Shown: piece after piece, positions 25,790 to 57,654 of the stretch | Numbering within the stretch: the stretch's first letter is position 1 | Layout: each line of letters begins with the position of its first letter | Source of the DNA: Balanoglossus misakiensis | Taxonomy: Eukaryota > Animalia > Hemichordata | DNA: 64,000 bases | Direction of reading: 5' to 3' | Assembly: GCA_040954595.2 (NCBI GenBank) | Contig: CM082577.2 | Span: 15,197,903 to 15,261,902 of the forward strand | Position numbers and translations under genes: made by a program | The notes under the pieces: generated by a model | The model's database searches: none | What the model was told of the DNA's origin: nothing | What the model saw: the letters and a program-made list of their open reading frames with translations, nothing else

Positions 25790-25791
25790 TC

Positions 25792-28700
25792 ATGGATTTC
25801 ATTAGATATTACTTTTATTTATTGATAATGGTCTGTCTTACACTTTCAACTTTTAATGTACGAGGGTGTAAAGATGCGATGAAACGCTATCAAACTTTTG
25901 AGTTTTTGAAAAAATTTCAACGTTCGGATGTATTTTTTCTTCAAGAGACTCATTCTGTACCTTTTGATGAAGACCTCTGGAGACTGATTTGGAGGGGTCA
26001 TGGTGAATTTTCTCACCTCTCTTCAAATAGCAGTGGTGTTGCAATATTATTTTCACCTGGTTTAAAAGTTGATATTGTGAGTTCTCGCTCGGTAATTCCG
26101 GGTAGACTTCTTCATGTCAAAGCGACAATCAAGGATTTTACTTACAACTTTATTAATATGTATGCTTCTGTGGATCATAGTGAACGGCTTAATAATTTTC
26201 GTGAGCTGAAAAAGCTCTTGAATGACTTGCAAAATGATGACATTGTTATTGTAGGGGGTGATTTTAATTGTACCATTAATCCGGGTAAAGATAGATTGAA
26301 TGGCAAAGAACCTGATCATTTCTCTTCTGATTTACTTTCTAATATCATTCATCGTTTTAAATTGTGTGATGCCTGGAGACATTTTCACGGTCAAGACACT
26401 TTGAACTTTACCTGGAAAAGACAGAGTAGTGCGGCAAGACTTGATCGCTTTTACATACCTAAACATCTGTGCAGTAAAATTCAGTCTGTTTCTATTGTTC
26501 CTGGGTTTAAGTCTGACCATGATGTTGTCAATTTGGGCATTTCACAATCTAATTTTAAACCACGCAGTGCGGTTTGGTGTTTAAACACTGAATTGTTATC
26601 AGATGAAGTTTATTGCGAGCTCATTGCTGATTTTTGGGCGAATTGGAAATTGCGTAAAACACTTTATAGTTCTATTCAAGTGTGGTGGGACATAGGGAAA
26701 CAACAGATTAAATTTCTGACCCAGCAATATTGTACTGAAAGAAAATGGAAGAAAATGAATCTGAAACGCGACCTGGAGTGTGAATTACGTAACATTGAAA
26801 GTATTCACGGGAGAGGCTGTGAAGCGTTGGCCACTTTTGTTGAAAAGAGAAATCTATTGGACAAGATTATTCATTCGCAGGTGCAAGGCGCTGTTGTTAG
26901 GTCAAGGTTCAAACAGCTGAATGAAAGTGACAGTTCTACGTCATTCTTTTATGATCTGGAACGCCACAAAGGTGTGAAAAAATTCATGACTCATTTGCGT
27001 ATGATGAATGGTGAGCTCACAGAAAACCCGTCTCAAATTCGTCAATTAGCGAGAGATTTCTTCTCTGATCTTTACTCTCCAGATGCTGTTTCGATTGAGG
27101 CTCAAGATGTTCTTTTAAAAGATTTGCCGACTCTTAATGAAGAAAATGTGCGTGCTCTTGATTTGCCTCTTTCTTTTGAGGAATTTACGCAATCGCTGAC
27201 GCTTCTCAATAATAATGCTTCCCCGGGTATTGATGGTCTCCCGGCAGAGTTTTATAAAAAATTTTGGTCCACTCTTGGCAAAGATTGTTTTGAAGTTTTC
27301 ACTGCTGCGGTTCAGGATGGTACTCTTCCTTTATCTTGTAGAAGAGCTATTTTAACTTTAATCCCTAAAACAGGTGACAGTAGCTTATTGAAAAACTGGC
27401 GTCCTGTCTCTGTCCTATGTTCGGACTACAAAATTTTAACGAAAGCTTTGTCAATTCGTCTTCGGACTGTTTTATCAGATATTATTGATATTGATCAAAG
27501 TTACTGTGTCCCTGGAAGGCGTATTTCTGATAATATCACCCTTATTCGTGATGTTGTTCAGTATGCTAATGATCAGAATAGGACGCTTGGTATTTTGTCG
27601 TTGGATCAGGAAAAGGCTTTCGACCGGGTCCATCACAGTTACTTGATTAAGACTTTGCAGGCTTTTGGTTTTGGTCCAAATTTTATTAGCTATATTAGAC
27701 TCCTTTACTCTAGCACTGAAAGTCTTTTGAAGCTGAATAATGGGCTTACTGCACCAATCTCTTTTAATCGCGGTATCCGGCAGGGGTGCTCTTTGTCGGG
27801 CCAGTTGTACTCAATCTGCATTGAGCCTTTTCTACATAAAGTTCGTACTCAGAGTAACATGCGTGGTTTTGAACTTCCAAACTCCAATAGGAAGCGTTGT
27901 CACTTATCGGCGTATGCAGACGATATTAGCTTTCTGATGAGTCATGATGACGACTTTATGAATTTACAGCATTGGATTAACATGTATGAAAGAGCTTCTA
28001 ATGCGAGGATTAATTATTTTAAATCTAAGGGCTTGTGGTGTGGTAGATGGAAAGGGCGGGGTGACTCTCCTTTAAATATCAAATGGTCTTCCAGTGGGTT
28101 AAAATTGTTAGGTGTTTTTATCGGGAACGAGGCTGCCTATGCTGTTAAGAATTGGGAGGACATGAGTCGGATGATTGATGCTAAACTGAATGAGTGGAAG
28201 CGGTTTGCAACTGCGTTATCGTATCAAGGCCGTGTTTTGGTCATTAATCAGTTGGCCGCTACAAAGATTCTTCATCGTTTAGCAGTTATTTCACTTCCTA
28301 AAGATCTTATTGATGCTCTTCAGCAGAAATTTCTTAACTTTTTGTGGCAAGGTCGTCATTGGGTTGCTAGGGAAACTGTGTATCTACCCGTTAAAAAGGG
28401 TGGGCAGGGTCTTATTCATCTCCAGTCTCGCTTAAATGCTTTTAGGTTACAGCACCTTCAACGTTATTTATATGGGAATGAGAAACATCCTTGTTATTTT
28501 TTCTTTGACTATTATCTTGGCAATATCGAAGATCTACATTATGACAAACAACTTTTTTGTGTCGGTTTAAAAGATTTGAGAGTTAATACTTTTATGCCAA
28601 ACTTCTATCATGATGTGTGGAGGGTGATTAATTCGAGATCCTTGGTTATTAGACGTGATGGAAAACCCTTTACCATTGAAGGTGTTTTAAATGAGCCGCT

Positions 28701-29718
28701 GTTTTTGAACAAGTTAATAATTAACCCGAGCACGGGTCATTATTTTCCCATTGATCAGTTTGCTAGTGGGGGTCTGACAAAGGTTGTTGACCTTATAAAT
28801 TTAAATGATCGCAAGTGGAAAACTATTCATGAACTTGAATGTGTGCTTTCTATTCGTTCCCAACGTATTATTGCTTCTAAACTGCATTTATTTACAGAAG
28901 CAATTTTAAAGAGTTTTGGTACCATAATTAGCAACTTTTTTGATATTTGTACTTGTAGTCCCATTATTCAGGAGGCACTGAACAATCCATTGTATCACTA
29001 TACCCTCAGCACTTCACTTGCTGAAAAAGGCGATGATATTCAGACTTGTCTTTACAAACTTGAAAAAGGAGCTATTTATACCTTTCTTATTGATAATCTT
29101 TATGAGACTAGCGAGGGTTCTTCAAAATTCCCGACTGAATTGTTGTGTAATCCAGCTACTGTGAAGCCCAACTATGGCATAATCTATGATAGACCTATAT
29201 ACAAAAAAGAGGGTGACTTACAGTGGCGTTTCCTCCACGGTGCTATTTCTACAGGTGTCTATTTGCATTCGGCTGGTTATATAGACAGCGCGAATTGCCC
29301 GTTTTGTAGTAATCATATTGACACCATTAGGCATATGTTCGTTGATTGCCAGCGGTTGCATAACTTTCTTATTTTTATTCGTGGCATTGTTGAGAAAATC
29401 TGTGGCCTAGACACCATTCCTCAGAATTGGTACATTATTGGCCCTCCATACAGTAAGGGCAAAAAATCAGCTATGCGCCTTGCAAACTTTATTTTCATAA
29501 CTACCAAGTTAGTTATTCACATTTCCCACTATAACAAGATTAAAAATAAGTCCAGTTGCGATATATTTGATTTGTTTAGGAAGCGTGTGAAGTCGCGCTT
29601 AATGGTTGAGTATCAGTACTGCAATTTCACTAGTAATTTGACCTACTTTGAAACGTTTTGGGCAATGAACTCAGCCTTGTGTACTGTAAGAGATAATGAA
29701 CTTATTTTCTGTATATAG
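25792..29718 (+). CDS. Tx1 ORF2 (AP endonuclease-reverse transcriptase-zinc finger), 1308 aa, intact
   Basis: FLQETH, GGDFN, SDH; PGIDG, NWRPVS, LDQEKAFD, GIRQGCSLS, AYADD; CPFC...HMFVDC. Confidence 0.96.
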   Translation: MDFIRYYFYLLIMVCLTLSTFNVRGCKDAMKRYQTFEFLKKFQRSDVFFLQETHSVPFDEDLWRLIWRGHGEFSHLSSNSSGVAILFSPGLKVDIVSSRSVIPGRLLHVKATIKDFTYNFINMYASVDHSERLNNFRELKKLLNDLQNDDIVIVGGDFNCTINPGKDRLNGKEPDHFSSDLLSNIIHRFKLCDAWRHFHGQDTLNFTWKRQSSAARLDRFYIPKHLCSKIQSVSIVPGFKSDHDVVNLGISQSNFKPRSAVWCLNTELLSDEVYCELIADFWANWKLRKTLYSSIQVWWDIGKQQIKFLTQQYCTERKWKKMNLKRDLECELRNIESIHGRGCEALATFVEKRNLLDKIIHSQVQGAVVRSRFKQLNESDSSTSFFYDLERHKGVKKFMTHLRMMNGELTENPSQIRQLARDFFSDLYSPDAVSIEAQDVLLKDLPTLNEENVRALDLPLSFEEFTQSLTLLNNNASPGIDGLPAEFYKKFWSTLGKDCFEVFTAAVQDGTLPLSCRRAILTLIPKTGDSSLLKNWRPVSVLCSDYKILTKALSIRLRTVLSDIIDIDQSYCVPGRRISDNITLIRDVVQYANDQNRTLGILSLDQEKAFDRVHHSYLIKTLQAFGFGPNFISYIRLLYSSTESLLKLNNGLTAPISFNRGIRQGCSLSGQLYSICIEPFLHKVRTQSNMRGFELPNSNRKRCHLSAYADDISFLMSHDDDFMNLQHWINMYERASNARINYFKSKGLWCGRWKGRGDSPLNIKWSSSGLKLLGVFIGNEAAYAVKNWEDMSRMIDAKLNEWKRFATALSYQGRVLVINQLAATKILHRLAVISLPKDLIDALQQKFLNFLWQGRHWVARETVYLPVKKGGQGLIHLQSRLNAFRLQHLQRYLYGNEKHPCYFFFDYYLGNIEDLHYDKQLFCVGLKDLRVNTFMPNFYHDVWRVINSRSLVIRRDGKPFTIEGVLNEPLFLNKLIINPSTGHYFPIDQFASGGLTKVVDLINLNDRKWKTIHELECVLSIRSQRIIASKLHLFTEAILKSFGTIISNFFDICTCSPIIQEALNNPLYHYTLSTSLAEKGDDIQTCLYKLEKGAIYTFLIDNLYETSEGSSKFPTELLCNPATVKPNYGIIYDRPIYKKEGDLQWRFLHGAISTGVYLHSAGYIDSANCPFCSNHIDTIRHMFVDCQRLHNFLIFIRGIVEKICGLDTIPQNWYIIGPPYSKGKKSAMRLANFIFITTKLVIHISHYNKIKNKSSCDIFDLFRKRVKSRLMVEYQYCNFTSNLTYFETFWAMNSALCTVRDNELIFCI

Positions 29719-29954
29719 AATTTGTATAATCAGACTTGTATATCAGACTGTTAGGTTTTTTATAGAAAAAGGGCTTTTAACCTAACATATGGCAAGCACT
29801 AGACAATGAACATTTTTTCACTGTGTATATGTATAGATTTTATTTCTGTTGATTTACTTTCACCTGTAACTGTACATATATTTTTATAGCTTTATAATTT
29901 GGTAAAGTTATATTAAATGGTGCTTGAAAATCAAAAATCTTCTTCTTCTTCTTC

Positions 29955-32900
29955 CATATTGGTTGACTGTAAGAAGGAGAGCTCCTGAATTGTGGTATTT
30001 TTTTCTCCACTGTTGACGGTGTTCCAGGAAAGTTTGACATTTTCTGGACTGTGATTGTCTACTGTTTCTCCGTGTGTGCTTTTTGGGACCTTTTCTACGA
30101 GGATTGCTGTGATTGCGGCAGATAACTGATTTGGTGCTTGTCACCTATCAGACCTGCCAATATGGCGGCCGGACGGGCTTACGCTCAGTACGGCAACGAC
30201 GTTACCCTGACAAGGCTGTGTATGAAAAACGCGTTGAAGATTGAGAGTCTGGAGGGGATAAGTGTGAACGCATATGTGGAGAAGATTGCGGAATTGGTTG
30301 AGGTTAGTGAAATTCTGGCTGCCTCCAGAATGAATAGATCTGTGGTCGTGTTTTTGAAAAATATGCAATCGGTTGAAATGGTTTGCGCCTCAGGACTAAC
30401 GATTGGCGAAGATTTTATACAGCCCCAACCGATGGTGAAACCAGCGACCAAGGTAATCCTTTCGAATGTGCCACCATTCATACCCAACGATTTGCTTGCT
30501 GAACGTTTGGAGTTATATGGAAAGGTTATTACGCAGAGTTTCCGGTATATTCCGCTGGGTTGCAAAAAGGCCGAACTCAGACATGTCAAGTCATTCCGAC
30601 GACAGGTGTTTGTGGTGCTTAAACAACAAACCGATATTGATGGCGTTTTGAATATTCTTTGTGACGGACATTTTTATCCTGTGTTAGTGTCAAGGGAGAA
30701 CGCTAAGTGCTTGAACAAGCGTGACAGATCGCCGAGCCCTGCTGACGACTTGACAGAGTCGCATTCAGAGAAGAAACGGTGTGAAATGGAAGAAAATCAA
30801 GAACAGTCTCCATTAACTCGTGAAGACGATGAACAGTCTAATGTGAGTGACATTATTGGTGTTTCTGATGAAGAGAGGGTACGACCCCCTCCTTCAACTC
30901 ATGATGTTCAGAATGTTTCCTCTGTTGACAGTGTTCCCTCCTCCGAAATACATTCCATTCCTGAGGAGTCCCCATGTTGTTCTAACGCAGCAGCTATTGT
31001 ATTACATGAAACAGGCAGCAGCCAAGAAAGCCTGGTTTGCTCTCAGCCATCTTCTTTTCCCCCTCCTTCAGGTATTCCAGTTCATAATGCTTTTGGTGTT
31101 GTTTCACGCAGTTCTTCGTTATCTGATTTGTCAACCATGAGTGAATTGTCTGATAAATCGTCTGTTTGTTTGTCACAGAAATCCTTACTTGATTTCATAG
31201 AAGATATTAAGTATTCTAAAAAACCTATTGAGCAATCACAAGAACATTGTTCAGATTTAATGCTGTTAATGAAGTCTCTTTCTCACGTACTGAAAGCTGG
31301 TGTTCTTTCTAGTAAACAGAAAACCCGTGTAGGAAAACTAGTTAAAAAGATAAGAATGTACGTTAAACATAACCATTAGTCATGGATTTCATTAGATATT
31401 ACTTTTATTTATTGATTATGGTCTGTCTTACACTTTCAACTTTTAATGTACGAGGGTGTAAAGATGCGATGAAACGCTATCAAACTTTTGAGTTTTTGAA
31501 AACATTTCAACGTTCGGATGTATTTTTTCTTCAAGAGAGTCATTCTCTACCTTTTGATGAAGACCTCTGGAGACTGATTTGGAGGGGTCATGGTGAATTT
31601 TCTCACCTCTCTTCAAATAGCAGTGGTGTTGCAATTTCATTTCACCTGGTTTAAAAGTTGATATTGTGAGTTCTCGCTCGGTAATTCCGGGTAGACTTCT
31701 TCATGTCAAAGCGACAATCAAGGATTTTACTTACAACTTTATTAAAGGCACGTAAGCTGTAACTTTTGGGATAATTTTCATAATTTTTGTTTCACACTGC
31801 ACTACCATTAGTCCATGCAGATGAAGGCAGTGAACTATTCACAAGGATTATAAACCCTAAACATGAGTGCATATGCAAGTTTTAACCAGATAAATAATAA
31901 AGCTTTGCCGCAAGCGATTATTGCCGCCACCGTGGGAAAATGAAAGAAACAATAAAAATGTCGCATTTCCGGCTGTGAAACTTCATAAACAAAACATGAT
32001 CTCATCCACTTGAGCTCATGGAAGTAAATGTACACCACTGAGACATCAGATTTTCATTTTTCATTGCAATATTGCACTTTTTTAAAAATTTCAGGAATGT
32101 TCGTTTTTCTTTAATTTTTGACCATTTTGTCATAAATAAGTGTTGAGCTTGATATATTATCATGAAATAGCATTTAATAGATATAATTAAAAGCATATAT
32201 GACATTATTTAAAACTTTAATTTTTTATCCAGTTGCAGCTTACGTGCCTTTAATATGTATGCTTCTGTGGATCATAGTGAACGGCTTAATAATTTTCGTT
32301 AGCTGAAAAAGCTCTTGAATGACTTGCAAAATGATGACATTGTTATTGTAGGGGGTGATTTTAATTGTACCATTAATCCGGGTAAAGATAGATTGAATGG
32401 TAAAGAACCTGATCATAACTCTTCTGAGTTACTTTCTAAGATCATTCATCGTTTTAAATTGTGTGATGCCTGGAGACATTTTTACGGTCAAGACACTTTG
32501 AACTTTACCTGGAAAAGACAGAGTAGTGCGGCAAGACTTGATCGCTTTTACATACCTAAACATCTGTGCAGTAAAATTCAGTATGTTTCTATTGTTCCTG
32601 GGTTCAAGTCTGACCATGATGTTGTCAATATGGGCATTTCACAATCTAATTTTTCAACCACGCAGTGCGGTTTGGTGTTTAAACACTGAATTGTTATCAG
32701 ATGAAGTTTATTGCGAGCTCATTGCTGATTTTTGGGCGAATTGGAAATTGCGTAAAACACTTTATAGTACTATTCAAGTGTGGTGGGACATAGGGAAACA
32801 AAAGATTAAATTTCTGACCCAGCAGTATTGTACTGAAAGAAAATGGAGGAAACTGAATCTGAAACGCGACCTGGAGTGTGAATTACGTAACATTGAAAGT

Positions 32901-34808
32901 ATTCACGGGAGAGGCTGTGAAGCGTTGGCCACTTTTGTTGAAAAGAGAAATCTATTAGACAAGATTATTCATTCGCAGGTGCAAGGCGCTGTTGTTAGGT
33001 CAAGGTTCAAACAGCTGAATGAAAGTGACAGTTCTACGTCATTCTTTTATGATCTGGAACGCCACAAAGGTGTGAAAAAATTCATGACTCATTTGCGTAT
33101 GATGAATGGTGAGCTCACAGAAAACCCGTCTCAAATTCGTCAATTAGCGAGAGATTTCTTCTCTGATCTTTACTCTCCAGATGCTGTTTCGATTGAAGCT
33201 CAAGATGTTCTTTTAAAAGATTTGCCGACTCTTAATGAGGAAAATGTGCGTGCTCTTGATTTGCCTCTTTCTTTTGAGGAAATTACGCAATCGCTGAAGC
33301 TTCGGCAGAGTTTTATAAAAAAAAAGTTGGTCCACTCTTGGCAAAGATTGTTTTGAAGTTTTCACTGCTGCGGTTCAGGATGGTACTCTTCCTTTATCTT
33401 GTAGAAGAGCTATTCTACCTTTAATCCCTAAAACGGGTGACAGTAGCTTTTTGAAAAACTGGCGTCCTGTCTCTGTCCTGTGTTCGGACTACAAAATTTT
33501 AACGAAAGCTTAGTCAATTCGTCTTCGGACTGTTTTATCAGATATTATTGATATTGATCAAAGTTACTGTGTCCCTGGAAGGCGTATTTCTGATAATATC
33601 ACTCTTATTCGTGATGTTGTTCAGTATGCTAATGATCAGAATAGGACGCTTGGTATTTTGTCGTTGGATCAGGAAAAGGCTTTCGACCGGGTCCATCACA
33701 GTTACTTGATTAAGACTTTGCAGGCTTTTGGTTTTGGTCCAAATTTTATTAGCTATATTAGACTCCTTTACTCTAGCACTGAAAGTCTTTTGAAGCTGAA
33801 TAATGGGCTTACTGCACCAATCTCTTTTAATCGCGGTATCCGTCAGGGCAGCTCTTTGTCGGGCCAGTTGTACTCAATCTGCATAGAGCCTTTTCTACAT
33901 AAAGTTCGTACTCAGAGTAACATGCGTGGTTTTGAACTTCCAAACTCCAATAGGAAGCGTTGTCATATATCGGCGTATGCAGACGATATTAGCTTTCTGA
34001 TGAGTCATGATGACGACTTTATGAATTTACAGCATTGGATTAACATTTATGAAAGAGCTTCTAATGCGAGGATTAATTATTTTAAATCTAAGGGCTTGTG
34101 GTGTGGTAGATGGAAAGGGCGGGATGACTCTCCTTTAAATATCAAATGGTCTTCCAGTGGGTTAAAATTGTTAGGTGTTTTTATCGGGAACGAGGCTGCC
34201 TATGCTGTTAAGAATTGGGAGGACATGAGTCGCATGATTGATGCTAAACTTAATGAGTGGAAGCGGTTTGCAACTGCGTTATCGTATCAAGGCCGTGTTT
34301 TGGTCATTAATCAGTTGGCCGCTACAAAGATTCTTCATCGTTTAGCAGTTATTTCACTTCCTAAAGATCTTATTGATGCTCTTCAGCAGAAATTTCTCAA
34401 CTTTTTGTGGCAAGGTCGTCATTGGGTTGCAAGGGAAACTGTGTATCTACCCGTTAAAAAGGGGTGGGCAGGGTCTTATTCATCTCCAGTCTCGCTTAAA
34501 TGCTTTTAGGTTACAGCACCTTCAACGATATTTATATGGGGATGAGAAACATCCTTGTTATTTTTTCTTTGACTATTATCTTGGCAATATCGAAGATCTA
34601 CATTATGACAAGCAACTTTTTTGTGTCGGTTTAAAAGATTTGAGAGTTAATACTTTTATGCCAAACTTCTATCATGATGTGTGGAGGGTGATTAATTCGA
34701 GATCCTTGGTTATTAGACGTGATGGAAAACCCTATACCATTGAAGGTGTTTTAAATGAGCCACTGTTTTTGAACAAGTTAATAATTAACCCGAGCACGGG
34801 TCATTATT
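29955..34808 (+). mobile_element. Second, degraded and 3'-truncated copy of the same Tx1 element
   Basis: Highly similar to copy 1. ORF1 (30138-31379) has two in-frame deletions; ORF2 has frameshifts, a stop and a MITE; similarity ends at NPSTGHY. Confidence 0.92.
31746..32249. mobile_element. TTAA-TSD MITE (Kolobok/T2-like)
   Basis: TTAA|AGGCACGTAAGCTG...CAGCTTACGTGCCT|TTAA; Tx1 copy 1 shows the empty site (ctttattaatatg). Confidence 0.92.
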
Positions 34809-34809
34809 T

Positions 34810-34950
34810 AGAGAATAATGAACGCCCCAAAGACCCATAATGGACGAAAGCACACATTGTGCGCTATAATATACGAGGCGAAGCCGAGTATATTATGGAG
34901 CACAATGTGTGCTTGAGTCCATTATGGGTCTTTGGGCGTTCATTATTCTC
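34810..34950. repeat. ~140 bp imperfect palindrome with GCGAAGC centre at the Tx1/virus junction
   Basis: GAGAATAATGAACGCCC..AAAGACCCATAATGGAC..AAGCACACATTGTGC / GCACAATGTGTGCTT..GTCCATTATGGGTCTTTGGGCGTTCATTATTCTC. Confidence 0.9.
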
Positions 34951-35913: not shown

Positions 35914-36789
35914 TCATTTGATCCCCGTGCATGACTTGTTAAAGACATGTCTTCGACGACAGTATGTGGACTTCCCATATTTATGTGCTGTTATCTTCGG
36001 ATTTAGTTTGTGAAGATGGTATTTAAGTTCGCAGTAAAATAATGCAATTTCTGATTCCATAATTTTTAGAACAGTCTTCAGTAGTGGCCAACATCTCGTT
36101 AAAACAACCACTAATATTATTCCTTTATACAAGAGAAATTCGAACACGTATTGGAGGCCAGCCACGGCGCAAATATCGGTCATGACAGTAGGGTTGCAAT
36201 CTCCACGAAGTGACACCCAAAAAAGTAACTGAAGTGGGTAGTACATGACATATCTCGAAAGTGTAATACTTTTGTACCACTGCAAATCTGCACACAACCC
36301 ACCGGCCCCGACACCTCTCTGTATCCAATAAATGACATCTTGCCACCAATTGCGGATGTTCGCGCAACCACCACGTGTGTTGAGAGCTGCCATGGCATCG
36401 AATATGTCCATATGCCAAGCGATTTCCGAATGAATAGGTTTTCCAGAAAAACAATGTCCTTCAAAACACCTTTTGAATTTCTCAAAACCTACGGCTAAAG
36501 GATCTATGATTCCTCTCAAATCTTTCACAATAGCGCTCAAAACAACACCTAAACCACCAGTGATTTCCTTGAACAACTTCACGAGAAACAATCCTATGAT
36601 TGAAACGACAGCTGTTGCCAGCGCGATGTACAAATATGAATTCCAAGGTGCAAATCTGTAAAGAGTCCGACATACAGCTTTTGTGAGATGCCAAGCGGAA
36701 AGCTGGTGTTTCACAGTATCCTTATGTCTGTATATCTGAGCCTCGTACTGGTACACGACTTTATCGTCTGCCTTGTGCCCTAAAACCAT
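35914..36789 (-). CDS. Multi-pass membrane protein, unknown family
   Basis: Open frame from the ATG at 36789; several hydrophobic segments and a Cys-containing loop; head-to-head with the terminase gene. Confidence 0.7.
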   Translation of the reverse strand: MVLGHKADDKVVYQYEAQIYRHKDTVKHQLSAWHLTKAVCRTLYRFAPWNSYLYIALATAVVSIIGLFLVKLFKEITGGLGVVLSAIVKDLRGIIDPLAVGFEKFKRCFEGHCFSGKPIHSEIAWHMDIFDAMAALNTRGGCANIRNWWQDVIYWIQRGVGAGGLCADLQWYKSITLSRYVMYYPLQLLFWVSLRGDCNPTVMTDICAVAGLQYVFEFLLYKGIILVVVLTRCWPLLKTVLKIMESEIALFYCELKYHLHKLNPKITAHKYGKSTYCRRRHVFNKSCTGIK

Positions 36790-36861: not shown

Positions 36862-37566
36862 ATGGAGGCAGACAAGCTCAGCCCATTTGTCAGAGATGCC
36901 CAGAGAATGGACGCTCTCATTACACAGTGTAGACAACAACAAGACCAACTTAGGGGTGTGTTTTTAAGAAAACACGCGTACAAGGAAAACTATATGTTTT
37001 CTCGCGTTGAAGACGTAGACGCGAGACTGTCTTTAATGAAAAGGGCTATACAAACCATCCGATTGTTATGCAAGGGGAAACAATTTACGTTCGAACCTTT
37101 CCAGGAGGAGATGTGTAGGGCCATAATGTTAAGTCGCTTACGACATTTTTTTGGTGAGGAATCTAAAAAGTTTTTCTTGCCTGTGATGAAATACCTAGGT
37201 ATAATTTCAGCACACTTTGACGAGCGAACATGCGACAGAATCAACCTATCGAGAGTACGTAGCCAAATAGAAGAATATAACCATAAGTTTATCGTTGTCA
37301 TGGTACCGAGACGCTCTGGTAAAAATGCCACCGCGCAAATTATTGCCACGACACTTTTATTGTACGAACCAAATTGTTCAATCATAGTTTGGGCTCAAGA
37401 CATGAACTGTGCGTTACTGAACAAAGAAGGTATATGTGAAAATCTATCGCTGCTCAAGACAATATCTGACATACCATTCGATTTTCGCGTTTCCGGGGAT
37501 ACGGTGACAGTCGTAAGATGTGATGGTAGTAAAGGCACTCTGCGCGTAAAGCCTAATTCGCCTAAT
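36862..37566 (+). CDS. DNA-packaging terminase ATPase subunit, exon 1 (herpesvirus UL15-like)
   Basis: FEPFQEEM (cf. UL15 LELFQKM), FIVVMVPRRSGKN Walker A at ~37303-37323 (cf. VFLVPRRHGKT), G-SKGTLRVKPNSPN, then GTAAGT donor at 37567. Confidence 0.85.
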
Positions 37567-38143
37567 GTAAGTGTAAACACATTCCATCTACTATTATGTA
37601 TTTGCATTGTATCCAGTTTACATTTTGTGTTCAATATTTATTTCATTATTGCGTACACTTGGATGGTCATCTCAATGTAGTTGTATTTGTAGAGGCCTAT
37701 GGCAACTGGCCATGGCGAAAAGATAAAGGTGCCACGCTCGACACTCTATCACTATTTGATTTACGTTTGTGTATGGGTTCGAATGGCACAAAAGTCACAG
37801 GACGCAAATGTTTAGATCACAGTGTATCATTTTATTGCGTGTCATACCGATATACAAAGTTAGTACGTACAATTAAACGCTTTCTTAAAGAGTCAGTCAG
37901 TGTACTAATCTCAAAATGTGGTCGCTATCCATTCACACATGGATCATGCTTCCTTTGTCCCAATGATCGTAAAATTCATCCCATCACACCTGTTTAGATG
38001 TGTACAAATCAGCCGTCGAGAGTTCACAAATACTATTCTACTTAATCGCCATATAATGGTCACGAGAGGGCGCCGTCGCTTGCTGTTTTGTTAGTACAGC
38101 ACAGGTCAATCAAGGTCATCTATTGTGTTCTGTCACAGTCCGT

Positions 38144-40216
38144 TCAATTGGCAAATGCGAGGCAATTCATTCTTCGCGCTTGGCTGGCACACGACACTGC
38201 GTCAGTGGGTAGTTTAAGATGATCATATATTTCATCAAATCGACGTTTAAACGACTCTTGCATCACCGCTACATTTCTTTGGTGCATTTCCATTTGCCTG
38301 GCCTGGGACGCGACCGTCTGCGTTAACTCATCTACTTTCGAATTGAGCTGTGCCTTATCAGACTCCAATTGGACTATGCGCATTTCTCGCTCTTTTAGCA
38401 TAGCCATTACATTCTCCGCGGCTGCTGATTGCTCCCTACAGTTTTCCAACTCGGAACGGAGCGACTCGATAGCAGCTGCTTGTTCCGCACTATGTTCTTG
38501 GTGACGTGAAATGGCATTGTACAGACAAGCGCCCTGTTTCGAGTTGAGAAACTGTACGATAGCTTGAAAGTTCTCATGACTATTCCTTGTACGGGGGCTG
38601 TCTTTCACAAATTCTTTCAATAGTTGACATTCTATAGTGGCGATCGTGATATCGCGTTCTGTTTTCTTGAGTAGGCGACTACCGACCTTTTTCGACATGC
38701 CTGATGTGATCTCGTCAACGCCGAATACAACAGTGGCGCCTGCCAACACCGAGGACATGGCAGTGACGTAGCAACCTAACACAGTATAGCCGAATTTATC
38801 ATACTGTGTGCACAAGTCGACGCGTGAAGAGTTGGAATATTGCGGTTTTGAGCGAATGATTCGGGCCACGGTGGAAACAATCGCACTATTCTGACATGGT
38901 TCGTTGTTTTGACCGGATAATCCTAACGGACACTTGAATTTAGTTCCAGATCTGCTTTCTATCAGTTTTATTGCGATTCGTTTTGTTGGGCCAGACGATT
39001 CGATTACTTCAATGGTTGGGTTGTCCGGGATAATTGCGTCGTTAGAAACGGTTACATTTATCACTTTGCAATCTTCTAAGGGTTTCATAATCTTAAACCA
39101 ATAAATTGTCGCTGGATACACTTGTTCACCAACGTGCATGTAGTACAAATTGTTCTTTAATTGTGGGGGCAATTTATCGCAATCTCCATACAGCACAGGC
39201 ATCCCAACCACAGCCGCGGCAGAATTTATGTCATCCTCTGTCGACAGTTGAATCAAAGGAGGGGTTTTCGAGTCCAAGAAATCGCATACATAATTCTTGT
39301 TCCGTTTACAGTCTTTCATTCGCTTGCGCTTGGCAGTTACCGAAGTATTGTCTCCCAACAGCGAAAACTGATCGTTTCCACATTGCACAGTAATAAGGTT
39401 CCAGGCCTCTTTCGGAGATAGCACGTGATAATGCCCGTCTTTCATTAAAGCGATGCACGGAAAATCATTGCTTTGACCTTTCTGTAACATGTATGATATA
39501 GGTGTTCTGATTGCGTCGTGAAACTCTTTCATACAGTCATTATCGCTTGTGTATAATGACAGAATAGCACCAAAATTGCCGCGAATGGTCAAATGGCGTT
39601 CCGCGTCGTTCGATTGGTCTGGTATTAAATCCTGAGTATAAGACATCGGACTTTGTGCGTCGAGCGGGGGGTGAATTTCAGCGGCAGATGCGCGAATTTC
39701 CTCTGGAACTTGATAACTGGTGCATGGATGAGAAACTGCAGTGGCATTCTCTGACGGCCCCGGGTTATATTGTTCAGTGTGGTTGTCGGATCCACCGTGC
39801 CGGTCCGCGTGATAGAACGGAGAAGAGTCTATCGAACTGGGTTCATTATGGACTAAGAATTCGGTCGTTGCCTCTGTGGCATTCACGCTCGGGGCCTGAC
39901 GGGTATGATCTGATACGCCTAGCAACAAATCTATGATGTTTGGAGACTCGTTCACCATTTCGGCCGAAAAATCTTGTTCAATATCGTCTCCAAATAAAAA
40001 GTCTTGGACGGTGGTATAAGGCTCATCGCTCGATATATCAGGAGCCATTTCTACATCACAAGCCTGTATGACAAAAAATGAGGAAATGTATTAACAGTTG
40101 TGCGAAGACACAGTGGGTTAACAAACAAAATGCGTTTAATGTGTATATGTACTCACGGGAATTTGAACCTGTCGGAGTACCGTCTGTAGAAAATCACTAT
40201 AATCGGTTTGAGCCAT
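38144..40216 (-). CDS. Hypothetical protein with C-terminal coiled coil, 2 exons (40216-40157, 40063-38144)
   Basis: 634 aa ORF extended in frame by a 93 nt GTGAGT...CAG intron; TATAAA at 40253-40258. Confidence 0.8.
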
Positions 40217-40625: not shown

Positions 40626-41514
40626 TCATTCTGTCAAGTTCATTTTTTCGTCTAGGCCAGGGACCATCTTACACATTTCGGATAATGCTAGAGCTAATAT
40701 TCTGTTTTCCAGTTCTATATTGGATATTTTATCTATGGGGTTGTTTTCAAAATCTGTAACGCTTTCGTCATCATGCAACAACAATTTGAACCACAAAATA
40801 ATCGCTACGTATGAGTCACCTTCGAAATTGATGACGGATATTGAGTCATTTGCATAATCAGATATATCACATAGTACCGGCATTCCAAACTTCGCATACA
40901 ACCACCTGTTGGATCCTTCAACAAAACGGTCTGTTTTAAGTCTGGGTGTCTGTTCTACAAAATTACCTAACGCACGTGGGTTTGTAGTTAACCCAAGTTC
41001 ACGAAGGATATCATGGCTATTTTGCAAAACCATGGATTCTACCGCGTCTAAATAATGCATGGCTTGTACACTGCCATCTTCCCTTAGGAAAAGGGTTGAA
41101 CACCTATCAACACCAGGAGTAGCTAAAGCTTCCAGCGAAACAGTACACGCACTGGGGACTGATTGCCAAACTCCTCCACGTTGTTTATAAAAAGCTATGT
41201 ATTCTTTGAAACACGACCCGTGTGCTTGTATCGTTTTTATTTTATTTAACAGTATCATTGGATGGTGATTTTGCGACCTCCGGTGTGTTGATTGGTGAAC
41301 ATCCTCAGAGACGACCTAAACAGTTGCATTGATAGAGAGGAAGATAGAAAGAGTGGTTTAGTGGAAAGTAATATTTAGTCAAATGTTGGCAACCCGATTT
41401 ACATGTAGAATGACATGTACGTACCTCAGTTGTATTTTCAGTAGATATATCCCGGGATGAATCGTCGGGTTCATGAATAGGCGTTTCCGTATGTTGTTCT
41501 TGGATCACACGAAC
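40626..41514 (-). CDS. Paralog of the adjacent gene; exons 41514-41425 and 41315-40626, first exon not found
   Basis: Shares GMPVL...Y.A.I.WFK with the 38144 gene; phase-0 GT-AG joins. Confidence 0.65.
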
Positions 41515-41596: not shown

Positions 41597-42157
41597 TCGC
41601 TGGCTCGCCGTTGACTGGACCAGCGCGCCCTCAACCGTTAACAAACAAACGAACACCGCTTCGCAATGTCCCAGCGTAAATCTCTCTTGACAGTAAAGTT
41701 TAATTGGCGGTCCACGGGATACTAATTAAACAGTTTTCAAAGCAATGAAGCCCTTACACGGAGGCGTGAAAAACTAATTGTCCGCCTCGAGCTAGCTAAG
41801 TATTCGGCTTCAACCGACTCGCCATTTTTAAGCGCAGCCAGATAGTAGCGCGTGTTAACCCCCCCCCCCCCCCCACCCCAACCAAATCAGCGACGAACCT
41901 TCAATGCCGGCTGACTGGTAGCAGAAAACACAAACGACCTTGAATCACACCACGACAGTAGTCGGGTCTGTGAGCACCCCCAAACGCAAATTTATCGGCG
42001 AAAAACTACGGGAGCTTTTTGAAACAGCGACACTGGCTCGCTGTTGACTGTACCAGCGCGCCCTCAACCGTTAACAAACAAACGAACACCGCTTCGCAAT
42101 GTCCCAGCGTAAATCTCTCTTGACAGTCAAGTTTAATTGGCGGTCCACGGGATACTA
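41597..42157. repeat. Two ~125 bp direct repeats (41597-41725, 42030-42157)
   Basis: ctggctcgc...accagcgcgccctcaaccgttaac...ccacgggatactaa is duplicated. Confidence 0.85.
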
Positions 42158-42174
42158 AAATGATCGACCCAGAA

Positions 42175-43620
42175 GTGGCCAGTAACGTTTGAATTCCTAA
42201 TTTGCATACAGTTCCCCAACTTTGTTTAGCAATTTGCAACCCATTTCTGACAATAATTCACCCCAGGCACATTACTGGTACTATGAGTTTACTACGTGTG
42301 ATTTTTCATGAAGTTTTAAGAAATTCTTTACCTTCACTGACAAAATGTCAACGTGACCTTGAAGTTACAACTTTTGTAAACAAATATCTGCCATACCCAC
42401 ACAAAAATTAACCCCTCATGTTTTAGAAACATTATTAAAACCCTCTATTCATCATTTTGACACGAATACAATCCCCCCCTCCCCTTCAACTTGAAAGAGT
42501 TATCGCTGCCCGAGTTGTAGGTAGATCAAAATGCAAGTCATCGAGAGCTATTTGAGCCATAGATAAACAATGCGTAAATTTCTGCTGTATTTAGATAATA
42601 ATCGCGGTCTCTACGTCAGTCGACAACTTTTGCCGGGCCGTTGATACTTGCCATAACGTAATTCGAATTGTATATTTGCCATAGCGCTACAAATCTCATT
42701 CACCTGACATGTCTTATTTCGGGCCACCAACACGTTTTTGACAAATAGTTTACGATACAAGTCGATTGAAATGTGGCAAATAAATGTTGAATTAAACGTA
42801 CGTACCAGTTCTGTATCTCCGCCGGACAGATATATGTTGAAATCATTGGATCGACAAATCGGTGTTTCCTCTTGCAGTTCACGGAGAAGGCGGTTCTAAT
42901 AACAACAAATACCATAAAAAAATATTTGATAACATTGGATGAAGTTGTTAAATTCTCACAAAATCTATTTTACCTCATTTACATTGACAAGAGTATTTGA
43001 TACATCTCTGCACACTCTGGTGAGAATAAAAAACTTACGTAATCATCTTGCCCTAGTAATGATTCGGATATATTTTCATCCAGCCCAATCAAATCCATGT
43101 TGTCTGATAACAGTTTATACCAAGAAAATGGTAGCAACATGAAGACAACCCTAATATTTATACAAGAACACTTCAGAAGTTAATTAAAATCACATGTAGG
43201 CACTTGACGACAATTATTCATGCCATCAGACAGAAAATGACATTAGTTGGTCTCTCGTGTATAATTGTTTGACTCGAATATTGAAACTTGACGACAGACA
43301 TTGGACATGGTGCAACGCAAACGCTTGAACTTGCCAGTAACGTTTGCATTCCTCATTTGCATACAGTTCTGGCAATTATTTCACCCCGGGCACATTACTG
43401 GCACTATGAGTGTACTACATGTGATTTTTCATTAAGTTTTATCAAGAAGAATTTCTTTACTTCCACTGACAAAATTGTGAACACGAAATTCAAAGTGACC
43501 TTGAAGGTAACAAAAACAAAAAACAAAGAAAAAAAAAATATCTGCCATACCCACACAAAAATTAACCCCCTCAGGTTTTAGAAACATTATTAAACTCATC
43601 TATTCAAAATTTTGACATGA
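42175..43620. repeat. Two diverged ~290 bp direct repeats (42175-42470, 43325-43620)
   Basis: gccagtaacgtttg...gcacattactgg...atctgccatacccacacaaaa...tagaaacattattaaa is duplicated. Confidence 0.8.
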
Positions 43621-45631
43621 ATATATCCATGCAGCGTTGGAAAGGAAGTCATAACGTCATAGGTCAACATGCCTTGACTTAGTTCATGGGGAAGACAATT
43701 TTTACACCGTCATTACTCCTCAAGGGAGCCGCTCGCAACATTATAATTTCACGGTAACTCAGTTCAATATCTTCCTAGCCTACCCAATTTTTTTTCAAGA
43801 CAAGAAATCTTTTATGTGAGTCAGGGACCACAATTTCAGTCAACATACCGAAACTGTCTTTCTCGGGAACGCGTCGTTAAAACTTCACGAAAAATCATCC
43901 TATCATTGACTGTGGTGATTCATACCCGTACCACTCAGTGAAATAGATCTCTTTAGTCTGGGCGCCTTAATGAGCCCATTAAGCGCAAGAATGTTCCCTC
44001 AAGAAATAAAGACGGTCGGGAAACTCTCGGGCCTCATTATGGTTCGCTTAAATGTTGATTGGGTTCAACAATCCACTTAACTCTCCACACCCCCCACCTC
44101 CCTATCAGAAGCATGCCACATCCTGAACAGTTAATTAGCCATGCCAAGCACCTGTTTTCTCGGCGGTCTGCGACATTTCCGCAGGAAAACTGACATTTCG
44201 GACAGTTTTATTTGGTCAGTTCTAATTGTTTCTGTTGTAAAGGGCGGTGGGACGTGTAAAAAACGTCTTTATCATTGAATATTTCAATCATTTTACGACA
44301 ACAGAGTGTCACACTTTCGGGTATCGTAACATTCGACACTGGGATTTCACACTCAAGTGTAAAACACGAAAAATCACTTGTCGCGTCGGCACGGCTTTGG
44401 TCAATTTTTTGATAGTGTGAAGTAGATTTATCGCCGAAATAAGCTTAGCACTGTCGTTGATAATACAAATGAAAGCCATGGGTTGGATGAGATCCCCGGC
44501 GGAGATCGTCCGAGATGTCAACATCAAAGACACGGCTTTTCAAACGCACGGACTTCATTCCGCGACACAGTGAAGGCGTGTCGGGTCGCGGTCAGTGACC
44601 ATGGCAGCGCCGATATGCCAAGACGTCACTTGCGGAAGTGACCTCGTGTGGAGAGCTCATTTTGCGCGGTTTGAATGTTACTGACATCTAGCGAGAACTA
44701 TGACAGCTTCGATACATTAACGTATGATGAAATCATCGACTTTGTTTCTCAGAAATAAACTCATGGCATGAAAAATTAGGACGATAAAGAGAACGAGACA
44801 CTAGCTTTAGCGAAATCTACCGTGGCCATGGAAGGCCTACGCACGTTCATGGTTTGTTACGATAACCGGCCACATACGATGTTGAACGGATCAGAACATT
44901 GCAGCTTTGATTTCGTCTTTTTTTTCTTTCTTAACCTTTTGAACTCCTAAGGCCAAAAAAAAAAAAAAGAGTTTTGTTTAGCGTCCTCGCGCGCGTCACT
45001 TTTAAACATGCGCGTCGAGGCTTTTTTTTCGTAATTTTCGAACCCGGAAATCAACTGCAGTGTTTTCTCCAGGACGCGCGATTCCCCCTCTTTTACACTT
45101 GAAGCGCCCCTTGTAACAAGTTCAGGGGGCGACAATCGCCCCTTCTTGAGCAGCCCACCCGGCCAGTACATGCGCGTCCAAGCCTCCATAGCAGGCACCG
45201 TAGGTCAAAACACTGGGAAAACGGCCTATACATTTTAACTTCCCCCCCCCCCAAACTATGTTGTAGATGACTTTCACATTCATTTACGTGTAATTTAGCT
45301 CCAGGGCTATAGTGTGCAATTGTTGGAACAGCCTATCTGGATACCGTAGTGAACTTGTTGATATGGCGACTTTTGAAATTGGGTTGGCAGAACGTAACAA
45401 TTTTATGCAAATTAAAGAAACTGCGTTCCTGCCATGGCGATTATCAAGAATGTATCAGTTTATAATAATATAACCCGCCCAACAGGTTCGGATAATCGGT
45501 GTTCCACTGTATATTCAATATGGCGAGCTCAACATGTAAACACACAACTTCTCATCCCTCAAAAACATACAGGGGACCCATCTTAAGTAACGTCCAATGT
45601 AAAAGGTCACTGAACTCGTCAGCGTATTATG

Positions 45632-45895
45632 TGGCTACTCGTACATTGACCTTTTGGGGCGGGATTCTTTTTTGGCGCGCAACCACTAGTACCAGGCCCC
45701 AGACCAGGAACTGGCGACCCGCCGTTTGTTTCCAACGCCAAATTTGATTCTAATGTTGAATGTCCGAGAAAACAATTTATCTGACCTGTAGTTTTCTTGG
45801 CTCGCTTACGTTTTAATTTGGAAACTTTTAAAAGAATCAAACGCCACCGTCTTGATGACTGGCCCCTATTTTAATAATGGTTTCGTCGTTTCGCA
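45632..45895. repeat. ~260 bp repeat, second copy at ~47899-48142
   Basis: tactcgtacattgaccttttggggcggg...tggtttcgtcgtttcgc is present twice. Confidence 0.88.
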
Positions 45896-46008
45896 ATGGA
45901 AAAGGTCGCTGAACTCGCCAGCTGAAGCGATTGCGAAACAGCGAAACCACAAAAAACTGACATTATTTCCTTAAATACCACAGAGCGAAGGATGCATATT
46001 GCAATTAA

Positions 46009-46353
46009 AGGGACAAAGTCTCTCTCTCGCTGCCCTTTTTTTCCATTAATTATATTTGATACAAGACACCGTTTGTTATTCTACATGTGGATATATAGTG
46101 AATGAACGTTCAACCACCCGCAACTTCCATCCCTCTTATAGACAGGAGAGTGAAAAAAATCGCCAAAATGAATCATTGTTCTGTACCATTAATTCATTTT
46201 GGGCGAGTTTTTACTCTCGTATCATACAAGTGGGATGGAAGTTTTGTGTGGTTGAACGTTCATTCACTATATATCCACATGTAGAATAACAAACGGTGTC
46301 TTGTATCCAACATAATTAATGGAAAAAGGGCAGCGAGAGAGACTTTGTCCCTT
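46009..46353. mobile_element. Almost fully palindromic TTAA MITE, copy 1
   Basis: TTAA|AGGGACAAAGTC...GACTTTGTCCCT(T)|TTAA; empty paralogous site gcaattaagataataaag at ~47778-47795. Confidence 0.88.
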
Positions 46354-46373
46354 TTAAGATAATAAAGACTTTT

Positions 46374-46893
46374 GTCTTACCACTCCCATCAGCGTCTGAC
46401 CTTCGGCAGTCTACATGTCTGGTCATACATACATACATACATCAACATGTACATGTCTGATCAGCTGGCAGAAACAGTCAGTTGACTTCTGAGTGGCCTC
46501 GAGTCAATGTAGTATGTGTCACGCGCAAAGCACCATGGGAGTTCCAACATGAGTAAGCGTTGTGTCTTACCACTCCCATCAGCGTCTGACCTTCGGCAGT
46601 CGGCATACATGTCTGTCATACATACATACATCCACATATACTAGTACATGTCTGATCAGCTGGCATCCGGGTGTCCTATGGGAGTTCCAACATGAGTAAG
46701 CGTTGTGTCTTACCACTCCCATCAGCGTCTGACCTTCGGCAGTCGGCATACATGTCTGTCATACATACATACATCGACATACTAGTATACTAGTACATGT
46801 CTGATCAGCTGGCATCCGGGTGTCCTTGCGTCGGTGGTAGTGGTATATGTCACACGCAAAGCACCATGGGAGTTCCAACATGAGTAAGCGTTC
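46374..46893. repeat. Irregular tandem repeat, ~3 units of ~140-190 bp
   Basis: gtcttaccactcccatcagcgtctgaccttcggcagtc at ~46375, 46564, 46707. Confidence 0.88.
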
Positions 46894-47017
46894 CATTCTC
46901 CACGCAGAGAATAACCTTGCTAGGGAGTCCGACCACTATAGCCGCTATTTAGTGGCTATTGGGAAGACCCCCTATATAGTCTAGAATTATCCACTCCAAG
47001 TCTATGCGTGGAGAATG
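46894..47017. mobile_element. Tiny TIR element
   Basis: CATTCTCCACGCA...TGCGTGGAGAATG inverted ends. Confidence 0.55.
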
Positions 47018-48143
47018 TAAGAACTTTTCTGTAAACTTTCCGGGGCATATTATGGAAACTGGAAGCGAAAAACTGGACCATATTTTCGACCGCTGAAGGG
47101 GAGGTTTTAGCGTTTACATGATTTAAAATAACGCACTCTAGCGAAAGTTACCGCAAGTTGAAAATGCCTCAACAAACGTAGACTTGCTCCAAGTCTATGG
47201 GCTGTGTAGGGAACGTGTCGGCCCATACCCGAAACCACAAGCTCAGTCGCAAATTCGAAACTCGCCTCACTACCAAAAACACGCTTAAGGCAAGCATGCA
47301 TGCAAAAAAGTATTGAAATTATTTATTAAGACAAAAAACCACCGAAAACACAAAAAGTATTGAGATTTAAAAATCACCAAGCGACTAGTGGGCTAGTCTA
47401 CAACAAACGGTCTGTGAGCGGCCATTCAAAATGCAACGGTATGCTAATGAAGGTGGTGCGCTCTGGTTGATTGTCGCGATTTGTTTATGTTTTTTTTCAC
47501 TCCGTATGTCAGCTGGCATCATGGCGTACTGTTGCCAACGACGTAGTTTGAAGTTAGCAGGCAGACTAAACAGCGAGCGCGCAGCTTTATTGTGTGTATA
47601 TTTTGAAAGACTAATATGTAATGTGTGTGAAATTGCATGGGAGCCCCAAATCGATTTCACTGTACTATCTCATAGGCGTCTAACACATTCCAACGAAACC
47701 ACAAAGATCGAAACCTCAAAATGCGGCAGCAACTTACACTATTTCCTTAAATACCACAAGGCAGGGAGGCATGAATTGCAATTAAGATAATAAAGAAATT
47801 TGGACAAGGATACTGTGTTGTGTGAGTTACATGCGTTTCTATATATAACTACTACTCTTACCCCCCATCAGTGTTTGACCCTCGAAAGCTTATGGAATAT
47901 ACTCGTACATTGACCTTTTGGGGCGGGATTCTTTTTTGGCGCGCAACCACACCAGGAACTGGCGACCCGCCGTTTGTTTCCAACGCCAAATTTGATTCTG
48001 ATGTTGAATTTCCGAAAAAACAATTCATCTGACCTGTAGTTTTCTTGGGTCGCTTACGTTTTAATTTGGAAACTTTTTAAAAAATCATACGCCACAGTCT
48101 TGATGACTGGCCCCTATTTTAATAATGGTTTCGTCGTTTCGCT

Positions 48144-48925
48144 GTTTCGCTTCGTATGTGAAGGACTGTTTCTGCCAGCTGATCGGACATGTAAGATTTC
48201 GAAGTCACCGTTTCGCTTCGTATGTGAAGGCCGTGAAGTAAACTGACTGTTTTCTGCCAGCTGATCGGACATGTAAGATTTCGAAGTCACCGTTTCGCTT
48301 CGTATGTGAAGGCCGTGAAGTAAACTGACTGTTTTCTGCCAGCTGATCGGACATGTAAGATTTCGAAGTCACCGTTTCGCTTCGTATGTGAAGGCCGTGA
48401 AGTAAACTGACTGTTTTCTGCCAGCTGATCGGACATGTAAGATTTCGAAGTCACCGTTTCGCTTCGTATGTGAAGGCCGTGAAGTAAACTGACTGTTTTC
48501 TGCCAGCTGATCGGACATGTAAGATTTCGAAGTCACCGTTTCGCTTCGTATGTGAAGGCCGTGAAGTAAACTGACTGTTTTCTGCCAGCTGATCGGACAT
48601 GTAAGATTTCGAAGTCACCGTTTCGCTTCGTATGTGAAGGCCGTGAAGTAAACTGACTGTTTTCTGCCAGCTGATCGGACATGTAAGATTTCGAAGTCAC
48701 CGTTTCGCTTCGTATGTGAAGGCCGTGAAGTAAACTGACTGTTTTCTGCCAGCTGATCGGACATGTAAGATTTCGAAGTCACCGTTTCGCTTCGTATGTG
48801 ACGGCCGTGAAGTAAACTGACTGTTTTCTGCCAGCTGATCGGACATGTAAGATTTCGAAGTCACCGTTTCGCTTCGTATGTGACGGCCGTGAAGTCAACT
48901 GATCGGACATGTAAGATTTCGAAGG
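48144..48925. repeat. 82 bp tandem array, ~8 full near-identical units plus partial units
   Basis: Unit gtttcgcttcgtatgtgaaggccgtgaagtaaactgactgttttctgccagctgatcggacatgtaagatttcgaagtcacc at 48210, 48292, 48374 and onward. Confidence 0.97.
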
Positions 48926-49006
48926 TCAAACACTGATGGGGGGCGGTAAGACAAAAATCTTTATTATCTTAATTGTAATATACCTCATTCGCACTGTGGC
49001 ATTTAA

Positions 49007-49354
49007 AGGGACAAAGTCTCTCTCTCGCTGCCCTTTTTTCCATTAATTATATTTGATACAAGACACCGTTTGTTATTCTACATGTGGATATAAAGTGAAT
49101 CAAAATTCAACCACACGCAACTTCCATCCCTCTTATAGACAGGAGAGTGAAAAAAACTCGCCAAAATGAATAATCGTTCTTTACCATTTATTCATTTTGG
49201 GCGAGTTTTTAATCTCATATCATACAAATGGGATGGAAGTTGTGTGTGGTTTAACGTAGATTCACTATATATCCACATGTACATTAACATAACCAGTGTC
49301 TTGTATCAAACATAATTAATGGAATAAGGGTAGCTGGAGAGAGACTTTGTCCCT
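49007..49354. mobile_element. Palindromic TTAA MITE, copy 2
   Basis: Same termini and interior as 46009-46353, with TTAA on both sides. Confidence 0.88.
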
Positions 49355-49594
49355 TTAAGGAAATAATGTCAGTTTTTTTGTGGTTTCGCTGTTTCGCAAC
49401 TTCCACTTGCATATGCGGCGATTGACATAAGACAGGCCGGACCGCGTGACCTTTTCCACTTGGACATGAGACGTGAAAAATTGAATGGTACATGTGTCAG
49501 TGTTCAGTGCACAAAAGAATCTTACATAAACCCATCACTGCCCCTATTAAAATGCATAGTTTGTGTGTTTTTGTTTGTTTGTGTGTTTTTGTTT

Positions 49595-50190
49595 TAGAAT
49601 ACAATTAAAAGAAATTAAAAACAATATAAAAATATAAATAAAATAAAAACGAGATTACAAACAAAATTGAATAAAAAGAAAATTGAAAAGAAAAGACGAC
49701 AAAATAAAATGAAAAGAAATTAAAAACAACATAAAACATAAATAAAATAAAAACGAAATTACAAACAAAATAGAATAAAAAGAAAATTGAAAAGAAAAGA
49801 CAACAAAATAAAATGAAAAGAAATTAAAAACAACATAAAAACATAAATAAAATAAAAACGAGATTACAAACAAAATTGAATAAAAAGAAAATTGAAAAGA
49901 AAAGACGACAAAATACAATGAAAAGTAATTAAAAACAAAACAAAATAAACAAACATAAAAACGAAATTAAAAACAAAATTGAATAAAAAAATTTGAACAG
50001 AAAATAAAACAAAATACAATGAAAAGAAAATGATAAGAAAAAAGAAAAGAAAAATGAAAAGAAAATGAAAAGAAATAAAAAAAAACAGTAAAAAATAAAT
50101 AAAATCAAAACGAAATTAAAAAAAATGAATAAAAAAAATGGAAAAGAAAAGAAAATGAAAAGAAAAATAAAGTGAAATGAAATGAACATT
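49595..50190. repeat. A-rich low-complexity tract with ~110-120 bp periodicity
   Basis: aaaacgagattacaaacaaaattgaataaaaagaaaattgaaaag is repeated three times, then degenerates. Confidence 0.9.
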
Positions 50191-51707: not shown

Positions 51708-51847
51708 CTTAAAACATCTGTGTATGTGTCCCGGGCGATAATTGGCTGGATAGAAACTATATTAGACTATTATCATTGACATACAATAGTATAGGCGTTT
51801 GAGTGTTTTTTTCTTTAATTTCATAACATTGTTCTTATGTATTCTGT

Positions 51848-57596: not shown

Positions 57597-57654
57597 TTCA
57601 CGCAGTTACAGGGAGGAGATATGTTAATGTATTTTAATACATAGTGACAACGTC

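Follow-up and report, generated by a model that had tools for sequence, protein, structure and literature searches.

The 64-kb stretch of DNA analysed here (the window) carries on its forward strand the front half of a herpes-type terminase ATPase, an intact exon that closes at a predicted splice donor. By alignment, this donor is homologous to the intron position of UL15-type herpesvirus terminase genes. The back half was not found in the window, and an even chance is given to the two halves being joined by trans-splicing. A split layout of this kind is already known, and the window is a new example of it. Less usual are the host and the lineage, together with the spliced expression of two opposite-strand genes behind the donor. 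The features are collected in Table 1.

Table 1. Positions of the features in the window (L002, metagenome contig of a relative; X3, one of three runs; P0001-P0007, related front halves).
Feature	Position	Strand	Evidence
Decayed BEL/Pao retrotransposon	14574..21124	-	DUF5641 E 3e-23, Pao peptidase E 3e-9
Host L1-type retrotransposon, two copies to the left of the viral stretch (which begins near 35193)	24224..34840	+	First copy intact, second broken
Predicted membrane protein, head-to-head neighbour	35914..36789	-	L002 homologue, 49% identity, E 3e-87
Terminase ATPase exon 1, 235 codons, intact	36862..37566	+	tblastn, profiles, structure model
Q motif FEPFQ	37090..37104	+	E78 and Q81 invariant across 29 rows
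Walker A PRRSGKN	37306..37326	+	R150, G153 and K154 invariant; GKN in window and P0001-P0007
5' splice donor GTAAGT, phase 0 (predicted)	37567..37572	+	Column conservation
Read-through tail, 37 hydrophobic codons, likely intron sequence	37567..37680	+	0/35 columns conserved after V-S
ORF, 634 aa from first ATG, C-terminal coiled coil, behind AG acceptor	38144..40063	-	Spliced X3 contig
ORF, 210 aa from first ATG, behind AG acceptor	40626..41315	-	Spliced X3 contig
90-nt open exon, phase 0	41425..41514	-	X3 joints to either the 634-aa or the 210-aa ORF
Block within the viral stretch, mostly host repeats of high copy number, edges approximate	41700..50690		Contig depth, repeats
Further intron-poor, likely viral ORFs (F-box/LRR, predicted glycoproteins, kinase), short host repeats between	50709..64000	both	Two with L002 homologues

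The Front Half of a Herpes-Type Terminase

The exon is enclosed in an ORF of 272 amino acids (36862-37680, +). As stated in the original prediction, it holds a Q motif and a Walker A motif with GKN instead of GKT/S, and both could be located; these are the marks of the ATPase N-half of a herpes-type terminase large subunit. The single ORF gave no significant match to Pfam or to PDB sequences. The CyHV-1 terminase matched exon 1 by tblastn (E 4e-8), an N-half profile built from three known front halves scored it at E 1e-15, and a profile of 29 relatives reached the HSV-1 terminase at E 1.6e-6 and T4 gp17 at 0.008. The structure model of the exon (pLDDT 84.7) had the HSV-1 terminase 6m5r as its top PDB match (E 5e-4), and frog and sturgeon herpesvirus proteins came first among the viral models matching its fold. 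Terminase-like clusters were also returned by the ESM Atlas (0.96-0.98).

The GKN of the Walker A motif was considered as a sign of decay and this was ruled out, as it is present in all eight rows of the window's clade (window and P0001-P0007). Sequence comparison indicates that it is a trait of that clade.

The Predicted Splice Donor

Exon 1 closes at 37566 after ...LRVKPNSPN, with GTAAGT directly next to it. The phase-0 donor at this point, and the hydrophobic, intron-like nature of the read-through, had both been proposed from the letters and held up when conservation was added. The alignment of the window with its three closest relatives (56-66% identity) has 100 invariant columns out of 235 up to the donor and 0 out of 35 beyond V-S. 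This dipeptide is the translation of a read-through donor and is a protein-level sign, the DNA at the donor having been read only for the window, for the metagenome contig L001 (GTAAGTAT) and for the reference viruses. A profile search returned 28 matches, 25 of them half-length gene calls that all carry V-S at the donor column (25/25, a count that may be slightly biased since the search profile itself contained V-S) and diverge right after it. The remaining three matches span the full length and lead into Walker B through S-A-R-G, A-A-R-G or S-L-R-G. The donor was judged real because conservation stops at V-S in the close relatives and in the half-length matches.

The acceptor named in the original prediction did not stand. 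The AG at 37691-37692, expected to give RPMATGHGER and a stop, opens RPMATGHGEKIK..., an unrelated run of 40 codons; nor is it the nearest, since usable AGs at 37615-37616 and 37679-37680 are closer to the donor. Of the 29 AGs in 37567-38200, not one is followed by x-x-R-G and a Walker B. The similarity of the post-donor sequence to that of L001 was not above shuffles (23 versus a mean of 19 and a maximum of 32), and no convincing complement of it was found in the window. Poly(A)-like hexamers lie about 300 nt past the donor (window +306, L001 +275); they fail to separate cis- from trans-splicing, because a sense AATAAA is also present in 11 of 27 orthoherpesvirus introns.

The 272-residue ORF as a stand-alone protein with an incidental GTAAGT is highly improbable: its frame does stay open for 37 codons and no exon 2 was found, but Walker B is missing, the tails vary in length and sequence in every relative while all starting V-S, and spliced homologues use exactly this boundary.

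The Junction Position Across Herpesviruses

In the profile alignment, the end of exon 1 falls on ...IVFASSHN of HSV-1, and spliced proteins run on from this boundary as N/xxRG...hhhDE (the slash marks the junction). In CyHV-1, exon 1 ends LASSGN/GTAAGT and the acceptor, CAG/SARGQ, lies 21,514 bp away on the same strand; this acceptor recurs in two other cypriniviruses. An in-frame AG followed by x-x-R-G and Walker B lies 2,982-3,703 bp downstream in 27 of 28 orthoherpesvirus loci, the 28th being cut short. These loci came from a pattern scan and are of the SSHNTN type only, apparently alphaherpesviruses, and the presence of the donor in all 28 is no test, since the donor was part of the scan pattern. 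One of these acceptors coincides with that determined by RT-PCR in duck enteritis virus (PMC3079670).

The window thus has a phase-0 GT donor at the codon boundary before x-x-R-G, the UL15 position. The two suggestions made beforehand, that the intron position is conserved and that alloherpesvirus terminases are also split, agree with the alignment of intron positions, which places the donor at a homologous and not at a different site.

Two discrepancies were noted in published material. The donor 10-mer printed in PMC3079670 differs from the donor sequence found at the orthoherpesvirus loci. The deposited terminases of CyHV-3 (P0042) and AciHV-1 (P0046) read SSNQ/SARG and GANVS/TARG at the junction, possibly annotation slips.

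Search for the Back Half

No Walker B/nuclease exon was found on either strand of the window, 26.4 kb downstream and 36.9 kb upstream of the exon, in line with what had been reported from the letters. Back-half profiles (full, first 90 and first 40 residues) run over six frames, with stops read as X, gave best E values of about 1 or worse. As positive controls, held-out back halves of other families were recovered at E 5e-16 to 2e-8 with full-length profiles and at 2e-7 and 4e-6 with short ones; a strongly fragmented exon 2 might escape such profiles. There were no longer homologues among 498 candidates, which counts for little. A back-half profile of three cypriniviruses and P0028 retrieved nine proteins among 7999 candidates, all alloherpesvirus-like; these searches turned up no exon 2 for any member of the window's clade.

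The Clade of the Window and Its Relatives

In a tree of 38 front halves and 222 columns (P0014 and the cluster mates omitted, orthoherpesviruses represented by 9 of their 28 loci), the window joins P0001-P0003 (99/97) and then P0004-P0007 (95/99), all of them GKN. This clade of eight falls outside the alloherpesvirus group (96/89), and apart from the orthoherpesviruses and from two further groups of front halves. The alloherpesvirus group is anchored by two named proteins (P0027 and P0028), and the deep forks are not settled. By its position in the terminase tree, the window appears to fall outside the Alloherpesviridae, and this sequence comparison does not place its virus among the named fish herpesviruses. 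No gene for a capsid protein, polymerase or helicase was recognised in the window (the alloherpesvirus core genes number 12). Among the structure matches, the soft-shell clam herpesvirus ranked 8th and OsHV-1 ORF109 17th with 11% identity; the tree holds no labelled malacoherpesvirus.

The two further groups (P0008-P0022 and P0025) break at the same column and are possibly mirusviruses. Their Walker A in the tree reads PRRNGKSK in 13 rows and PRRSGKS in two.

The DNA of the relatives comes from two metagenome contigs, L001 and L002, of one relative; other searches for related loci came back empty. The L001 exon is 59% identical to that of the window. Both contigs have the same head-to-head neighbour as the window and different genes behind the donor. 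Two genes found upstream of the exon in L002 sit 20 kb downstream of it in the window. The ORF behind the donor in L001 (901-2091, -) looks primase-like by eye and has no Pfam match. It is followed by a P-loop ATPase of more than 1,200 residues (2132-5770, +; AAA_5 E 0.039) with no ESM Atlas cluster above 0.9.

Likely Expression of the Genes Behind the Donor

Three runs (X1, X2 and X3) from one sample and one study, which may be the source of the window, were compared with it. X3 has joints at 40062-41424 and 41313-41423, with ends CT..AC (GT-AG on the minus strand), that are absent from X1 and X2. Although labelled 'DNA?', X3 appears to behave as RNA, because its contigs are confined to the two minus-strand genes and their leader exon and carry joints that X1 and X2 lack. 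The genes at 38144-42925 (-) are likely transcribed and alternatively spliced, antisense to the region behind the terminase donor. None of the four X3 contigs in 35140-41590 lies over the terminase exon, which has no bearing either way on use of the donor. The 90-nt exon is in frame with both ORFs and runs on to an upstream exon starting near 42806 (X3, window 38144-42925). The structure model of the 634-aa ORF is of low confidence (pLDDT 38.7).

The 13 viral ORFs examined are all open and free of stops. Candidate host-modulating genes are an A20-like zinc finger (35331-35768, +), the F-box/LRR gene (50709-51707, +) and the protein kinase (62516-64000, +). A weak Herpes_UL6 match (58257-59489, E 0.035) falls on a protein that resembles a membrane protein. 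The viral stretch also holds an inverted repeat pair (56036-56198 and 61201-61351) of about 150 nt, 85-89% complementary and 5 kb apart. Rfam gave no matches to E 0.1 on 34800-64000.

Host DNA and Probable Integration

The window is mostly transposon DNA, L1-type and BEL/Pao. An animal host is inferred mainly from the BEL/Pao element, which belongs to a class of elements that PMC3118150 describes as metazoan. The ORFs of viral appearance fall into two blocks, at about 35193-41700 and 50690-64000; host repeats separate these blocks and also lie inside them. Contig depth is 10- to 1000-fold over the viral part in most bins from 42964 onward, and one repeat, located between two viral ORFs at 51886-52012, also occurs at 45840 and 48088. 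The terminase contig has a depth of 146 in X1 versus 103-157 for neighbouring unique contigs, a rough sign. No run contig bridges the viral/host junction. The viral copy is nonetheless likely to be integrated in an animal chromosome.

A 5,782-bp X1 contig continues 335 letters left of 35193 with sequence that does not fit the window, so the window's left edge is not the sole form in the sample. The left junction may be polymorphic, since this extension differs from the high-copy host repeat that the window has there. The 335-letter extension holds a 55-nt second copy of 35444-35498. A second copy of 40372-41525, about 90% identical, is present in X1 and X2 at a depth of 35-57 versus 146-155 and could be a second allele or a second viral copy. 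In the host DNA on the left, the L1-type element at 24224-29718 (+) is intact with both ORFs open; a broken second copy (30162-34840, +) follows and has a 54-nt inverted repeat (34826-34936) at its end.

Discussion

In the mechanism proposed here, the spliceosome would join terminase exon 1 to a distant exon 2. Judging from spliced relatives, exon 2 would start x-x-R-G and continue into Walker B and then an RNase H-type nuclease; the arginine of x-x-R-G is the arginine finger in HSV-1. Since Walker B and the nuclease would lie on exon 2, the product of exon 1 alone should lack both ATPase and DNA-cleaving activity, and without splicing the transcript would yield a dead 272-residue product. The splice may act as a gate on late-infection production of the packaging motor; PMC13595911 suggests that the split terminase has a regulatory role.

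The original prediction offered a very large intron or trans-splicing, and this remains the right pair of options. The lean towards trans-splicing comes from same-strand genes in the gap and from shuffled gene order, neither of them decisive. Same-strand ORFs start behind the donor at 50709, 57655, 58257 and 62516, two of them followed by AATAAA hexamers (near 52155 and 59578) that a cis transcript would have to pass. Gene order points the same way, because the genes behind the donor differ wholly from those of L001 and two upstream genes of L002 are downstream here. Trans-splicing has been reported for mirusvirus terminases (PMC12768974), and in frog herpesviruses it is forced by strand, the first exon being on the opposite strand (PMC3230846).

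Ordinary cis-splicing over a giant, gene-filled intron, with exon 2 on the plus strand beyond 64000, is a serious possibility to which somewhat less than an even chance is given. The viral stretch is still open at 64000, and the roughly 16 kb of the 26.4 kb downstream that look viral (with rough edges) are less than the 21.5 kb of the colinear CyHV-1 intron. Carp and catfish herpesvirus layouts and orthoherpesvirus introns are colinear as well, and the genes that come first behind the donor run on the opposite strand, like UL16/UL17 (PMC3079670). Such an intron would nevertheless have to contain the same-strand genes and 41 sense AATAAA hexamers in 37567-64000, many of these in host repeats and likely later arrivals, and gene content behind the donor is not conserved.

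A separate question from that of cis or trans is whether the integrated copy has lost, or been cut off from, its exon 2, leaving an orphan exon. We consider this rather unlikely, given that all the viral ORFs examined are open and that two neighbouring genes are spliced in X3, even though host repeats close the viral stretch 1.7 kb upstream and interrupt it for about 9 kb downstream, and an X1 contig diverges at its left edge.

The wider reading is put forward tentatively and is, on balance, doubtful: an invertebrate herpes-like lineage outside the three named families would keep the ancestral intron and trans-splice its packaging motor, the host carrying an intact, partly transcribed copy. 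If true, it would be the first animal system in which trans-splicing of a viral terminase can be read from RNA, and the intron would date to before the split of these lineages. One boundary is common to the window's clade, the two other groups, fish herpesviruses and orthoherpesviruses, which speaks for a single old intron in the eukaryotic packaging gene. The trans-splicing hypothesised for alloherpesviruses could also be examined in such an integrated animal copy, for which there are DNA and likely RNA data.

Comparison with Known Systems

Herpes-like viruses inside animal assemblies have been described as Herpesvirales-like regions in starfish and ribbon worm (bioRxiv 10.1101/2025.04.19.649669) and in lancelet and Capitella (PMC5552708), and as Teratorn in fish (PMC5601938); the window resembles them by description. 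The available text on the four invertebrate cases does not mention a split terminase. For Teratorn the terminase is given in two parts (PMC5601938), and no counterpart of its piggyBac fusion was seen in the window. No publication on the split terminase of an invertebrate-associated herpes-like virus was found in a search that lay outside most of the subscription literature.

Terminases split over long distances, with junctions at shared positions, were described for mirusviruses and alloherpesviruses in 2025 (PMC12768974), and terminase splitting is reviewed in PMC13595911. In Mirusviricota, as in the window, the Walker A half is apart from the Walker B/nuclease half, and the halves are reported to be far apart, with their trans-splicing confirmed by metatranscriptomes (Medvedeva et al., PMC12768974). 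According to the same source, some mirusvirus sites match alloherpesvirus sites perfectly. By description, mirusviruses have unicellular eukaryote hosts and are intron-rich, whereas the window exon is without small introns and its flanks look animal.

The orthoherpesvirus UL15/UL89/ORF29 intron has the same codon boundary and phase 0 as the window; its donor lies 85-86 residues past Walker A, against 87 in the window, and opposite-strand genes come behind the donor in both. It differs in its 3.0-3.7 kb length and adjacent exon 2, the window having none within 26.4 kb. In OsHV-1, of the Malacoherpesviridae, the terminase gene is unsplit; that of the window is split.

Alloherpesvirus terminases are the best named matches of the window exon in sequence and structure, at only 25-28% identity and with PR[RQ]CGK[TS] against PRRSGKN in Walker A. 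These genes have three exons (PMC3230846), and trans-splicing of them is only hypothesised in PMC12768974. Within this family (CyHV-1/2/3, IcHV-1 ORF62/69/71, SalHV-1 ORF72/80/82 and the ranid viruses), CyHV-1 has the donor boundary and phase of the window, and its back half lies tens of kb from the front half.
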